DNA of 49,462 nucleotides from Alphaproteobacteria bacterium (GCA_045126755.1 JBGVOY010000139.1:1-49462); one strand, 5' to 3'; numbered from the stretch's first letter, positions 39,239 to 47,068 are shown. The notes: generated by a model not told the origin, from the letters alone. Numbers and translations: made by a program.

Positions 39239-42200
39239 TTAATATACCGCACAATAAGGTTCTACAAACTCATTAAGATTTTTCTTATGAGATTCTTCAG
39301 CTTCTTTATCGTATTCAGATTGAGCCGCTCTATCTGTTTTTTCTCTTTTTATTCTTTCCTCTAATTCTTTATCAGGCTTCATATTATCGGTAAGTTTAAC
39401 AAGTTCATCGCTATCTTGTTTTAAGATTTTGCAAACATTGTCGAGAACCGCAATTTTTTCTTCAATCATGTCATTTTTAGGACTACTCTTGATGGAATTA
39501 ACGGTAGGACAAGCCTCATTAAAAAGTTTTGTTTTTCCATTATCGATAGCAACTAAAATCTCTTTATATGTTTTTTCATCAGATAAATCAAAATTTTCTG
39601 GCGGAACATAATCAAACTTAGCAAACTCGCCTTTCAATGTTTCTCGAGCTTCCTGAACCTTAACATCTAATTCATTCAAAGTTTTTTGATATTCCATTTC
39701 AAGCTCTACAAAACCTAAGAAGTTACCTATCTGATTTTTATTAAATACACTGTTATCTGCTCTATGTTTTTCATATACATCGTATTTATCTTCTTTATCC
39801 GTTGTTTCTTTAAGCTTGTCTAAATATTTCAATGTTTCAACATAAGAGCTATCAAATACCATACCGGTATCTCCGTTATTGGCGAACATCTTCAGCTCGC
39901 TGATTTTAGGAGCCGAAGAGCCCAAACTATCGGTTTTAACAATAAAATCATCACTTTCGTCTTTTAATTTAATTTTTATGCGATACGTTCCCAATAGTTG
40001 GTTGACGTCAATCTTTTCAATGTGATGACAAATCGCTGCGCCCTCCTCCTTCGGTGTAAGACTAATACCGCCTATCATATCAACCAAATATCCCGATACG
40101 CAAGGATACAAACCGCCTCTTGCTCTATAATCTGCAGCCGGAGGAATGTTTTCTTTGTCTTCTAACAATGAAGCCACGCTTACATGTCTGTCAACAAATC
40201 CTCTGTCTCCCAGTATGGTTTCCCATATTGCAGGCATTTCATAGCCATAATCCAAAAGACTTTCGTAAGGCATTGCACCGGTTTGTTTGTTTATAGCCAA
40301 TGTTTCATAGTCAATACCGTCGAAGTGAACAATTTCTCTGACCGGCGGTGTATAGCTTCTGTTTAACTTATTAGGCGCTGCAAAATCTTTTTCTTGCGGA
40401 GCCAAGCCTACAAAATAGTCTGTGCTGGCAGCATAACAACTGTTACTCGGACAAATTTTTTCAAACAATGCTTCTGCCACTGCTTTTTTTGCAGCAGTCT
40501 CAATAGTTGATATTGTGAGATAACCTGAAAGCATTCCTGCAGACAAATTAAGTTTAGGACTTTTAATATCATCCATAACAGAAGTATGTATTGACAATAT
40601 TTGATTGTGTTTATCCGGATTATATTTATCATCACCCAATGCCGTAATATCGGTATAGCCTCGGTTAATTGCAGAAATTGCATTCTGTTTAACTTGCAAA
40701 GCAGCAGAATCCGCTATTGATATTACCGTGCTGAAAATACGTCCTTTAGTAGTCGCAACAGATGATACATTATCAGATAATGTCTTTACCACTTTTCCTT
40801 CAATTTGTTCAAAAGAAGATTGCAACTGTTGTTCTTTTTGTTGTTGCAAGCTTGCTATAAGTGCAGCATATTTGTTTTTTGTATCTTCCAGTTCCTTTTT
40901 TGCTTGTTCCAGCTGAGCTTCCCATACATCAATACCGTTTCGAGCAGAATCTATTTCAGCTTTCAACCCTTTAAGTTCTGAAGCTGCAGTCTTTGCTTTA
41001 TCTTCAGCTTCTTTTTTATTTTTTCTTGCCGAATCTGCAAAACCATCCATTTGTTCTCCATCTTTCGTTTCTACCCACTTTTGGCGGTCAGTCGAAATAC
41101 CTAGCATTGTATCTTCAGCATCTATTGAACCTTTGTGTTGAATATATTCTTCAACTTTGTCGTTATATGCTTTTTTTGCATTGTTTAAATTAACATTAAA
41201 CTTATCAAGTTGCTCGTATGCTGTTTTTATTTTATTTTGAGCAGCCTGCTCGGCGGCTAAAAAGTTAGCTCTTTGAGTATTTATATTGCTCTCAAGTTGA
41301 GCTTGTAAAGCATAAATCGGATCAGTTTCTTCAGATACTGATATAGCGTTTTTGAGGTTATTGATACCGGAAGTAATATAACTTTTAAGTTCATTTACTT
41401 CTACACCGTGAACATATTTATTTGTATCCTGAACACACTCATCTTCTTCGTCGTCTTCATCGCATTCGGGCGGAGGAGGCTGAATACCGAAAATAGAAGA
41501 ATTGATTTTTTCCGCTATTGCTATTGATATCTCACGCAAATCCATATTATTTACGAATACCCCCATATTTTTATATTTCAAATCTAAATATTGATCATAA
41601 AAATATTTTTCATCTTCCCATAAATCATATTTGCGTTTGAAACTGCCATACTCATCAGATGAGCCCCTACTCATGCCCTCACCTACTTTTTTAGCAACCT
41701 CAGAGCCGATTTGCCAACCTAAAACATCTCTTTCTCGGTCAAGTTGCTCAAATTCAAGCTCTTTTGAAGGTTTAACCATTGACCTGTCGTTTGCCGTATT
41801 ATTATCCACAATATCTGCTTCTTGTTTTTCCATTTCTTCCATATCTTTTTGTGAAGAGGATACTTCAACGTCATCTGTTAAATCTGCAGCATTTTTTACA
41901 TCAATAGAATTATTTAATTGGATTACAAAATCATCTGCCGCAAACGTACGACCGCTGTTTTCCGAATCTGCCGTGGCATCGCCGCTTTCTGAATCATCTG
42001 CAACCTCTAGTGCCAAAAGTGCCTTTGCTTCTTTATATGAACCGATTGCATACCCCGACAAACCGGAGCGATTTTCATAGCTGTTAAGACCTGCTTTAGT
42101 GCAAATTTTTGTTTTATCGTCCTCACACAACATATACCCTGAAACAATATGGTCTAAATTTTCATCGGTTACCGCCATATTTCTGTCGCAATATACTGAA

Positions 42201-45490: not shown

Positions 45491-47068
45491 TTATTCTTCA
45501 ACAAAATCTTCCGGTTTAATTTCCGGTATGGCCGCAACAGAATCTTGTAAAACTTTTCCTGCCATTATATACATCATTCTGAGCAAAATTTCCTGATTTA
45601 AGCGCCCTATTTCACCCGTAAAAGAAACATCTGAGCGTTCATTTATCAAATCTTCGCCCAATGTTTCCATCTTTTTGGCGGATTCAGTATCAAAAGATGC
45701 AGAATATTCTTTTTGCTGTAAAGCCGAAGCCAATTCTCCGGCAACCTGTTCTTGAATTGCTTTTTTATATTCTTCACGACAAGCCAATCCTGCTCCGGCA
45801 TCTTCTTTATTATTCATACAGTCAACCCATGTTTTGATACAATCTTTTACTTTTTCTACATCTTCAGCTTGATCCCAATTCAATTTACATTTCGTTGCTA
45901 TGACATCTGAATACAAAAATCTTCCTTCATCATTGGTTCCGGTATAAACTGTTAGACCTGAGCTTGCATAAGAAGAATGAATATTGATATAGTCTTCTGC
46001 CGATGAACTTCTGCCAAAAGGTGTTCTTACTGTCGGAATCTTAAATGATTTTCCGCCATTCATAAAGCTTGCCGGCTGACCGGAAACTGTTGGCTTTTTA
46101 ATGGTGTTTATATCTACTTTTGGCGATTTTATTGTTGCTAAGTCACCACCGGAACTTGAGCTGCTGGAATACATCGAATCACCACCTGATGAACCACCTG
46201 AACTTGAGCTGCTAGCTGTATCAATCATACCACCGGAGCTTGAGCTGCTTGCTGTATCAATCATACCACCTGAACTTGAGCTGCTAGCTGTGTCAATCAT
46301 ACCACCTGAACTTGAGCTGCTTGAATACATCGAATCACCACCTGATGAACCTCCGGAATTTTCCTTATTCGGAAGACCATTTTCATCGCCCCATAAGTCA
46401 TCGCCGGAAGCTTCAGAATTTTCATCTCCCCATAAGTCATCAGCATCTTCTGAAGAACCTTCTTCCGCATTCTCTTTATTTTCGCCATTATTCATACCAT
46501 CTTGTGATGAATTATCGCCTTGAGAACCTGCATTTCCTTCGTTGTCATTTTTGCCTTGAGAACCGCCTTGAGAACTATTATCGCCACCGGCTCCGTTTTC
46601 ATCTCCCCAAGCGCCTTCGTTCCAATTTTCTTCGTTTTCCGGTTGACCGGCACCGTTGTCCTGATTAGGATTTTGTCCTTCCGTATTGTCAGAACCGTCT
46701 TCATCCTCCCAACCATCGTCGGAACCGCCTCTTTCTTTTTCTAACTTTTCACGTAACTTTTTCAAGCGTTCACTATTTTTCAATTTACGGGCTGCTTGTA
46801 GAGCCTCGCGCATTTCTTTATCATGTTCAGTCCTGAACTTTTTTATCGAACTTACGGCATCGCCCAAACTTTGTAACAATTTACTTTGAGAAATTGTTGA
46901 TTGAACAGTAGAAACCAACGATTGCGCATCGGTTATAATACCCTTAATCGTTGCGCCCACTTCTGCAATATCAAATGTAGGAAAACCAAAAGCATAACAC
47001 GGAGGCGTTGAAAAAGTTATTCCGATACATACCAAAATAACATATTTTAGATTCTTAAATTTATTCAT
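45491..47068 (-). CDS. Secreted protein (525 aa) with VirB5/TrbJ-like N-terminus, acidic low-complexity core and Ser/Gly tandem repeats
   Basis: I prefer the ATG at 47068 (GAGGAGG SD). Signal peptide MNKFKNLKYVILVCIGITFSTPPCYA. The mature N-terminus FGFPTFDIAEVGATIKGIITDAQSLVSTVQS resembles the xPVxDxANLxQ start of TrbJ/VirB5. Confidence 0.65.
   Translation of the reverse strand: MNKFKNLKYVILVCIGITFSTPPCYAFGFPTFDIAEVGATIKGIITDAQSLVSTVQSTISQSKLLQSLGDAVSSIKKFRTEHDKEMREALQAARKLKNSERLKKLREKLEKERGGSDDGWEDEDGSDNTEGQNPNQDNGAGQPENEENWNEGAWGDENGAGGDNSSQGGSQGKNDNEGNAGSQGDNSSQDGMNNGENKENAEEGSSEDADDLWGDENSEASGDDLWGDENGLPNKENSGGSSGGDSMYSSSSSSGGMIDTASSSSSGGMIDTASSSSSGGMIDTASSSSSGGSSGGDSMYSSSSSSGGDLATIKSPKVDINTIKKPTVSGQPASFMNGGKSFKIPTVRTPFGRSSSAEDYINIHSSYASSGLTVYTGTNDEGRFLYSDVIATKCKLNWDQAEDVEKVKDCIKTWVDCMNNKEDAGAGLACREEYKKAIQEQVAGELASALQQKEYSASFDTESAKKMETLGEDLINERSDVSFTGEIGRLNQEILLRMMYIMAGKVLQDSVAAIPEIKPEDFVEE
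46152..46355 (-). repeat. Nested tandem repeat A(48 bp)-B(36 bp)x3-A'(48 bp) inside the 525-aa gene
   Basis: B units lie at 46200-46235, 46236-46271 and 46272-46307 and are near-identical. A (46152-46199) and A' (46308-46355) are near-identical. The region encodes SGGDSMYSSSSSSGG-(MIDTASSSSSGG)x3-SSGGDSMYSSSSSSGG. Confidence 0.85.

Follow-up and report, generated by a model that had tools for sequence, protein, structure and literature searches.

The window analysed here, a stretch of 49,462 nucleotides (nt) from an Alphaproteobacteria bacterium (GCA_045126755.1, JBGVOY010000139.1:1-49462), carries an operon for a virB-type type IV secretion system (T4SS). Four consecutive genes between virB4 and virB8, in the virB5/virB6 slot, encode proteins of 525, 237, 404 and 1433 amino acids (aa), which we number first to fourth in that order. 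We propose, with a probability of about one-half, that the four are exported by Sec and work outside the cytoplasm as a VirB5-derived, diversifying pilus-tip or surface set, in a T4SS that is chromosomal and inherited vertically. What is new here is a virB-type T4SS with a remodelled and multiplied VirB5 set, a giant partner and no visible VirB6.

A VirB4 scan of one genome per species gave 158 stretches with a VirB4 relative. We kept 80 loci, with VirB4 76 to 92% identical, nearly all of them from gut, rumen or faecal alphaproteobacterial metagenome-assembled genomes. More than 150 species-level genomes share the conserved T4SS; they belong to common Alphaproteobacteria of gut and rumen that have not been cultured, a clade that we take to be the GTDB order RF32/CAG-239. 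We searched the literature for earlier accounts of the system and of the clade and found none.

Four predicted Sec-exported proteins occupy the virB5/virB6 slot

A preliminary description of the window had reported four signal-peptide proteins free of transmembrane (TM) helices in the virB5/virB6 slot. Calls of open reading frames (ORFs), together with a Kyte-Doolittle scan in 19-residue windows, confirmed all four, including their coordinates and lengths. The sole hydrophobic segment of each protein is N-terminal and is followed by a cleavage site with small residues at −3 and −1 (CYA/FG, AKA/DI, ANS/GL and TKA/FM in slot order, the slash marking the cut). To judge by these sequences, all four proteins are exported by Sec. 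The slot assignment was right as well, because the flanking genes encode VirB4 and two copies of VirB8 (PF04335), followed by VirB9, VirB10 and VirB11. As the description had also held, none of the four is a polytopic VirB6: VirB6/TrbL proteins (PF04610) have at least five TM helices.

We analysed the slot in those 62 of the 80 fetched loci in which virB4 and virB8 could both be placed. It contains three to six ORFs, each with at most an N-terminal hydrophobic segment, in a recurring pattern of roughly 500 to 700, 220 to 290, 400 to 450 and 1,250 to 1,650 aa. BLAST clustering (E < 1e-8) gave four separate families, matching the window genes in order. No polytopic VirB6-like protein was seen in the window, in the slot of the 62 loci or in the approximately 5 kb upstream of virB4 in three relatives. 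VirD4, a relaxase and VirB1 were likewise not found in any of these regions.

The operon is flanked by housekeeping genes (alaS, mlaA/mlaC, dnaN, recF, serS and genes for trpS/tyrS-type tRNA synthetases), and the T4SS is therefore chromosomal. We considered a conjugative element and rejected it on the strength of these flanks and of the fact that relaxase and VirD4 were not seen.

The first slot protein probably carries a VirB5 module

In the first protein, the signal peptide is followed by a helical N-terminal domain of VirB5 type, which a low-complexity linker joins to a helical C-terminal domain that contains Cys. Its family has 94 members among the ORFs of 81 sources (the window and the 80 loci), family proteins range from 367 to 807 aa, and the window protein has no Pfam or NCBIfam hit. 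The family's mature proteins start x-x-P-[T/V]-x-D, a nearly invariant motif that lies two residues past the cleavage site and is followed by an amphipathic helix and GDA. The preliminary description had likened this start to that of TrbJ/VirB5, and the likeness was borne out: the window protein reads CYA/FGFPTFDIAEV, and at least 90% of 52 family sequences keep P30, D33 and G69 (alignment numbering). Bona fide VirB5 proteins start TGMPTFDAAAV (Xanthomonas), GVPTIDGTQV (Phaeobacter; PF07996, 7e-16), GIPVNDQAAI (Agrobacterium pusense), GIPVAID (IncX4) and QVPVLDSNVF (Microvirga). Among the other slot families, the 404-aa proteins have the motif reduced to K-x-D, the 237-aa proteins are without it, and the 1433-aa proteins have PT-x-D after a Pro-rich extension.

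We built a hidden Markov model (HMM) from the first 60 mature residues of eight such bona fide VirB5 proteins, taken from annotated plasmids independently of the slot families, and searched it against the 4,952 ORFs of the 81 sources. The first family accounted for 13 of the 20 top matches, with 0.38 expected (approximately 34-fold enrichment; hypergeometric p = 1e-18). The best match had an E value of 5.6e-8, and several matches were in register at the mature N terminus. A profile of the family's N-terminal 200 aa, run against 177,635 PDB sequences, had as its best match TraC, the VirB5 of pKM101 (1R8I; E = 2.2e-4, low bias), and the whole-protein profile also listed TrwJ.

Signal-free family HMMs were then scored against mature VirB5 proteins, each with 300 shuffles and the reversed sequence as controls. 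The first family scored 20.7 bits against TraC (z = 6.0; reversed sequence, 4.2). The 404-aa family scored 16.5 bits against a 273-aa VirB5-like protein of Microvirga plasmid pMVF16-3, described below (z = 7.6; 0 of 300 shuffles; reversed, −4.5), in a match that is collinear over the last 110 aa of the Microvirga protein, and 8.1 bits against the Phaeobacter VirB5 (z = 3.8). All 300 shuffles were beaten in 8 of the 36 comparisons of a family HMM with a single VirB5. The first gene also sits directly downstream of virB4 in a virB-type operon, as VirB5 genes do. We conclude that, with good probability, the N-terminal module of the first protein is homologous to VirB5.

Beyond this module, a low-complexity Ser/Gly/Asp/Asn region of approximately 200 aa dominates the composition of the 525-aa protein (Ser, 14%; Gly, 11%). 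The claim that all four proteins are helical and rich in Glu, Lys and Gln stood only in part: it fails for this protein, which is Ser/Gly rich overall, and for the 1433-aa protein as a simple coiled coil. Linker length differs across the first family. The in-frame repeat of the 12-aa unit MIDTASSSSSGG in the window protein may be a site at which slippage or recombination alters the length. In the C-terminal domain (C-domain), C394 and C410 (alignment numbering) are conserved in at least 90% of the family. This domain is common to the 237- and 404-aa proteins, and it matches a 428-aa Microvirga protein at 13.8 bits (z = 5.4); a database search with its alignment gave a single match.

In some relatives, the first slot gene is split into one gene for an N-domain protein and another for a Cys C-domain protein (L037, 12378-14601; L047, 12369-13928; L052, 4877-6484). 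The separate C-domain protein has its own signal peptide in L037 and L047 and apparently none in L052. The split supports the two-module view of the first protein. Some other loci have extra ORFs, bringing the slot to five or six genes.

The first three proteins appear to be related

We compared the family profiles domain by domain with hhalign, with signal peptides cut off and reversed templates as controls. The N-domain of the first protein matched that of the 404-aa protein at 83% and that of the 1433-aa protein at 39%. The C-domain of the first protein matched those of the 237-aa and 404-aa proteins at 91% and 42%, and these two C-domains matched each other at 40%. All reversed controls stayed below 1%. 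The relations are collinear, N-domain with N-domain and C-domain with C-domain, and no further domain pair involving the 1433-aa protein reached 30%.

The preliminary description had proposed that the mature N termini of three of the proteins are related. With signal peptides removed, this stood for the first and 404-aa proteins and was weak for the first and 1433-aa proteins. For the 404-aa protein, the segment it had aligned (FTVFGTTVG...) was out of register, beginning 13 residues too far in, and we rejected that alignment; the aligned start is GLKIDGLAIV. The N- and C-terminal regions of the 404-aa protein are each related to the first protein. Without its signal peptide, the 237-aa protein has no N-terminal link to the others; its homology to the first protein lies in its C-terminal half, which corresponds to the C-domain, and R172 and R205 are invariant in its family. 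On these alignments, the first, second and third proteins thus seem to form a loose paralogous group, to which the fourth is linked weakly. We read the 404- and 237-aa proteins as probable diverged relatives of the VirB5-like first protein, short of formal family membership. The earlier idea of an expanded VirB5-like family is therefore reasonable for three related, VirB5-derived proteins, and a single family of four is not shown.

Database searches added little to this picture. Pfam and NCBIfam scans of the four proteins returned only subthreshold coiled-coil families, as they did for every first-family member scanned. None of the four had a significant match in Pfam, NCBIfam, PDB sequences or Foldseek; the best PDB sequence match of the first protein was TraC (E = 2e-4). 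PDB profile searches with the 237-, 404- and 1433-aa families and with the shared C-domain found only coiled-coil or designed helical proteins.

The 1433-aa protein forms a family of its own

Over 55 sequences of the 1433-aa family, 16 residues are invariant and many more nearly so. A HMMER search with residues 937 to 1437 (numbering of the 1437-aa ORF) against 1.84 billion representatives found 187 proteins, nearly all of 1,200 to 1,850 aa and matching at their extreme C terminus, which points to a closed family with one architecture. Two divergent homologues, found independently, lie in the same operon context. The PT-x-D at the mature N terminus, after the Pro-rich stretch, is conserved in the family (PTLD in the window).

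AlphaFold2 modelling of residues 331 to 1437 with 19 homologues gave a mean predicted local distance difference test (pLDDT) score of 78.9 and a predicted template modelling (pTM) score of 0.70. The model is mostly helical, with two small beta regions and an antiparallel hairpin of approximately 85 residues per arm (745-829 and 837-918) that is approximately 125 Å long. Foldseek found no match to it in PDB or BFVD at E ≤ 1e-3; its weak neighbours are long-helix proteins, namely chemoreceptors, the dynein stalk, SMC arms, Tc toxins, AhlB and colicins. The protein is lineage-specific and multi-domain, with conserved helical and predicted beta domains and no known fold. The 1433/1437-aa proteins were also enriched among the matches of the VirB5 N-terminal HMM, which we rejected as evidence, the matches lying in an internal coiled coil and not at the N terminus.

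Slot proteins diverge faster than the core

Across related loci, the four proteins are 20 to 48% identical, compared with 76 to 92% for VirB4. In the comparison with L004, the closest species, identity is 92% for VirB4, 68 and 73% for the pair of VirB8 copies and 71% for VirB9, compared with 48, 37, 42 and 38% for the slot proteins in order; further out, the latter fall to 20 to 30%.

Within the species, we compared the window with two near-identical strains (L001 and L002). The proportion of synonymous differences (pS) was 0.054 for the 237-aa gene and 0.090 for the 404-aa gene, against 0.00 to 0.013 for virB8 and virB9 and about 0.01 for the 1433-aa gene. The ratio of nonsynonymous to synonymous differences (pN/pS) was 0.13 to 0.22; the genes are hence functional, are kept by purifying selection and lie in a segment of local hyperdiversity. 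The segment of raised pS, several-fold or more above its neighbours, covers positions 43552 to 45479 of the window (721-2648 in L001 and 338-2265 in L002). The pattern fits allele exchange and suggests that divergent alleles were imported into the 237-aa/404-aa segment.

Upstream of virB4, relatives carry genes for VirB3 and for one to four VirB2 paralogues. The window ends before this region; VirB2/TrbC paralogues lie upstream of virB3 in L004 (8013-9584), L012 (6969-9459) and L058 (8614-9455). One of these paralogues is long (328 to 413 aa), with a VirB2 N terminus and an extension of 230 to 320 aa.

A VirB5-derived tip or surface set and its alternatives

In canonical systems, a VirB5 pentamer on a VirB6 pentamer makes up the stalk and later caps the pilus (PMC12624023). 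We propose that the first slot protein, as a VirB5 homologue, would oligomerise through its xxPTxD motif and amphipathic helix atop such a stalk and would later cap the VirB2 pilus. The 404- and 237-aa proteins would descend from the same ancestor as the first protein by duplication and by domain loss or shuffling, and through their shared domains they may either assemble together with it or take its place at the tip. The fourth protein would be a lineage-specific partner that offers a long helical projection for contact; an extended adhesin, at the tip or on the surface, is its likeliest role. That these proteins sit at the pilus tip, co-assemble and act as adhesins is what we infer here. The slot proteins would diverge faster than the core because they face the outside, exposure being, to judge by the rates, what may drive their divergence. 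With its exposed parts diverging faster, the main task of the system may hence be variable adhesion or contact, as in the Trw system of Bartonella. The conserved Cys pairs of the first and 1433-aa families would fit an extracytoplasmic location.

Several observations weigh against a VirB5-derived set. The TraC match falls on the second helix of the N-domain (profile positions 96 to 176), out of register with the motif. No member reached the Pfam VirB5 model PF07996 (gathering score, 24.7 bits), either among the 57 plus 10 first-family members scanned or among the window proteins. The best score came from a member in L066 (E = 0.17; 12.7 bits), in register from residues 48 to 190 with model positions 1 to 157. 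The PF07996 test is of low sensitivity, because a genuine Ti-type VirB5 and a TrbJ also miss the model. Weak matches to DUF4141, the only Pfam match of the authentic Ti-type VirB5, were found in 6 of 57 first-family members. The HMM-HMM comparison with VirB5 that the preliminary description had suggested was run with a crude eight-sequence profile and gave the relationship no clear support, all probabilities being below 5%. The N terminus of the first protein reached 4.8%, in register (score, 20.9, against 11.6 reversed), and the C-domain of the 404-aa protein 1.8% (19.0 against 10.1), with the other slot families at background. A joint profile of the shared C-domain found no VirB5 in PDB. VirB5 proteins fold as a three-helix bundle that bears a globular appendage (TraC, 1R8I) and form a pentamer in the stalk (TrwJ). 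The AlphaFold2 model of the 404-aa protein, built from 27 sequences, is all-helical and of low confidence (pLDDT, 55.9; pTM, 0.32), too poor for a comparison with that fold, and Foldseek found no match to it. Finally, the 1433-aa protein has no demonstrable VirB5 module, and VirB5 normally sits on VirB6, which was not found in the DNA examined.

That last point bears on a different role for the same genes. The four soluble proteins, and especially the 1433-aa hairpin, might build a periplasmic stalk or scaffold in place of the VirB5-VirB6 structure and so offset a missing VirB6, much as the enlarged Cag and Dot/Icm machines add unrelated periplasmic subunits. Such a scaffold would agree with the lack of a polytopic protein in the DNA searched, with genes that keep a fixed order, are tightly coupled and always accompany the core genes, and with a machine that is otherwise enlarged (VirB9, VirB10 and an extra beta-flower protein; Table 1). 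The confidently folded 1433-aa protein, conserved in length and architecture, would suit it too. We nevertheless regard a scaffold as unlikely. The internal subunits VirB8 and VirB9 are 66 to 75% identical where the slot proteins are 25 to 48% identical, a pace more in keeping with exposed parts; no precedent is known for a platform of pilus assembly that lacks membrane helices; and VirB6 may be encoded elsewhere in the genome. VirB6 is regarded as near-universal among T4SSs, and VirB5 and VirB6 form the stalk from which the pilus grows. It is doubtful that this T4SS is truly without VirB6 and makes its stalk and its pilus base or tip from soluble VirB5-derived proteins plus a new 1433-aa fold. 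If it does, it would mirror the Rickettsiales system and represent a novel architecture for assembling a T4SS, and it would test how far the stalk can be rebuilt. If VirB6 lies elsewhere, the locus would still be a natural experiment in tip or adhesin diversification, with three paralogues of differing architecture and a 1433-aa orphan.

The Sec signals of all four proteins, their quick divergence and the lack of a visible VirD4 gene near the operon would also be expected of cargo that is secreted in two steps, like pertussis toxin through Ptl: export by Sec, assembly in the periplasm and release by the T4SS as a toxin or adhesin complex, a route that needs no coupling protein. Conserved Cys residues, which suggest disulfides, would fit such cargo, and among the weak, nonsignificant neighbours that Foldseek gave for the 1433-aa protein are alpha-pore-forming toxins, Tc toxins and colicins. 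The template modelling scores of these neighbours are at most 0.14 (query normalised), however, and neither library scans of the four proteins nor the PDB profile search found a toxin or enzyme domain. The genes lie within the structural operon, between virB4 and virB8, rather than beside it, and the VirB5-type N terminus of the first protein marks a machine part; we find cargo quite improbable. The first protein's VirB5 likeness might, on the other hand, be an artefact of helical composition, with the four being unrelated lineage-specific periplasmic or outer-membrane proteins that ride in the operon. All subthreshold database matches were to coiled-coil families, the Pfam VirB5 model was not reached, and shuffling destroys heptad periodicity, so that z-scores against shuffles may overstate homology. 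The reversed controls keep that periodicity, yet they score far lower (4.2 against 20.7 bits and −4.5 against 16.5 bits). Nor is P-T-x-D at a fixed distance from the signal peptidase site a coiled-coil feature. With T4SS synteny strict across the whole clade as well, we consider that such passengers are very unlikely.

Under the VirB5-derived reading, the slot proteins are likely determinants of bacterial attachment in the gut. None of the libraries searched annotates any of the four families; it would be useful to annotate the first on the basis of VirB5 and to define the others as families.

Comparison with known systems

The first protein shares with the VirB5/TrbJ/TraC/TrwJ proteins (PF07996; DUF4141, PF13605) a gene that follows virB4, a Sec signal, an xxP[T/V]xD start, a long amphipathic helix and a predicted all-helical character, as well as the C-terminal helix with a D/R-D-type motif of VirB5 minor pilins. 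It differs in size (367 to 807 aa for its family, against about 220 to 270 aa) and in its inserted linker and Cys domain. Here there are also three paralogous genes rather than one, and no VirB6 gene adjoins them.

The Trw system of Bartonella, which serves host-specific adhesion, has no coupling protein, and its amplified VirB5 and VirB2 copies diversify more quickly than its core (PMC2883598). The window system is similar in being chromosomal, in having several VirB2 and VirB5-like genes that outpace the core and in having no coupling protein gene at the locus. The Trw copies, however, are recent tandem duplicates of canonical size, coamplified with VirB6 and VirB7, whereas here the paralogues are ancient and differ in architecture, VirB6 is not seen, and a 1433-aa protein is added. 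By analogy, Trw may be the best functional counterpart, and we propose a variable adhesion pilus.

In the rvh system of Rickettsiales, genes for five VirB6-like proteins follow virB4 in tandem, virB8 is duplicated, VirB7 is ComB7-like and VirB5 is lacking (PMC2653234). It resembles the window system as an alphaproteobacterial chromosomal T4SS with duplicated virB8, a small ComB7-like VirB7 lipoprotein and several large (600 to 1,150 aa), highly divergent proteins in tandem directly after virB4. In its slot, it is the mirror image: five polytopic VirB6-like proteins and no VirB5, against soluble VirB5-like proteins and no VirB6 seen.

The closest VirB4 in PLSDB, with 38% identity, is that of Microvirga sp. 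VF16 plasmid pMVF16-3 (NZ_CP069357; our locus L084, 671-684 kb). Its T4SS is the closest from a cultured organism and is mostly annotated as hypothetical. The gene order is shared (virB2, virB3, virB4, slot, lipoprotein, virB8, virB9, virB10, virB11). Its slot opens with the 273-aa VirB5-like protein (AQVPVLD...; PF07996 E = 0.17) and includes the secreted 428-aa protein that matches the shared C-domain, and a homologous 58-aa SPCACI lipoprotein holds the same position (L084, 25382-25558). Unlike the window system, that of pMVF16-3 is of the conjugative type, with a relaxase and VirD4; its slot includes a 228-aa protein with three TM segments, virB8 is present once, the core proteins are of ordinary size, and nothing corresponds to the 1433-aa protein. 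Its 273-, 228- and 428-aa slot proteins also miss the Pfam VirB5 and VirB6 models, so the wider T4SS lineage seems to be poorly covered by family models.

In Helicobacter, the Cag system likewise has several secreted, fast-evolving proteins in the VirB5 role (CagL, CagI and CagH), in an enlarged T4SS with a giant, repeat-bearing VirB10 (CagY). Cag has a polytopic protein, CagW. PDB-wide profile searches showed no similarity to Cag proteins; these searches included no targeted CagL comparison and assume that CagL structures are present in the library.

Layout of the operon and neighbouring genes

The T4SS genes form a single minus-strand operon (Table 1). With the likely ATG starts, the intergenic gaps from virB4 through the four slot genes to virB8 are 78, 11, −1, 11 and 15 nt. 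The −1 gap is an ATGA overlap, in which the 404-aa gene starts on the stop codon of the 237-aa gene, and a purine-rich ribosome-binding site precedes each slot gene start. The translational coupling described earlier, with gaps of at most 11 nt or overlaps, is thus correct within the set. The ATG of the first slot gene is preceded by GAGGAGG, and the ATG given for the 1433-aa gene is the start chosen by the gene callers in L001 and L002.

Table 1. Genes of the T4SS operon and parts of the first slot protein, in order of transcription
Feature	Position	Strand	Remarks
virB4	47147..49444	-	TIGR00929, 6e-110; upstream neighbour of slot
First slot gene, 525 aa from ATG 47068	45491..47068	-	ORF extends to TTG 47101 (536 aa)
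Mature N-domain of first slot protein	46712..46990	-	Residues 38-130 of 536-aa ORF; starts FGFPTFDIAEVGATIKGI; motif, amphipathic helix, conserved GDA
In-frame 36-nt tandem repeat in linker	46193..46321	-	Tandem Repeats Finder; 3.6 copies, 92% matches; 12-aa unit MIDTASSSSSGG
C-domain of first slot protein	45494..45919	-	Residues 395-536; two conserved Cys, then helices including a conserved ..RDD.. helix
Second slot gene, 237 aa	44766..45479	-	Signal peptide, helical
Third slot gene, 404 aa	43552..44766	-	Signal peptide, predicted all-helical
Fourth slot gene, 1433 aa from ATG 43540	39239..43540	-	ORF extends to GTG 43552 (1437 aa)
virB8, first copy	38465..39223	-	PF04335, 1.2e-13; downstream neighbour of slot
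VirB7-like lipoprotein, 62 aa	38127..38315	-	Between the two virB8 copies; lipobox LLSAC, motif KLSPCACI
virB8, second copy	37370..38119	-	PF04335
virB9, 572 aa	35636..37354	-	
Beta-flower repeat protein, 1598 aa	30843..35639	-	Between virB9 and virB10
virB10, 1398 aa	26645..30841	-	
virB11	25665..26633	-	Operon from second virB8 to virB11 spans 25665..38119

The virB4 gene is probably cut by the window end (47147-49462), the listed ORF from a TTG measuring 765 aa. In a relative (L094, 3569-6001), virB4 is called at 810 aa, with a VirB4_TrbE_N domain, and overlaps the end of virB3. The 62-aa lipoprotein (MYKKIILLIALILLSAC...KLSPCACIEV) is also called as a gene in L001 and L002 and has no Pfam match; it is probably VirB7. 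The 1598-aa protein has an N-terminal TM helix and approximately 15 beta-flower repeats (PF21785/PF21784/DUF3659). The same repeats stand ahead of the TrbI domain in VirB10, an arrangement that recalls CagY.

Outside the operon, an 876-aa protein with a signal peptide is encoded downstream of mlaC (20239-22869, minus strand), its sole match being a weak one to cEGF. Two paralogous ORFs of 221 and 214 aa (2778-3443, minus strand, and 7693-8337, plus strand) have a type IV pilin-like N terminus, GRSMVEMLGVLAIIGVLSVGAI.GY, and no Pfam match. In L004, a TcpQ-domain gene (4679-5497) lies upstream of the T4SS.

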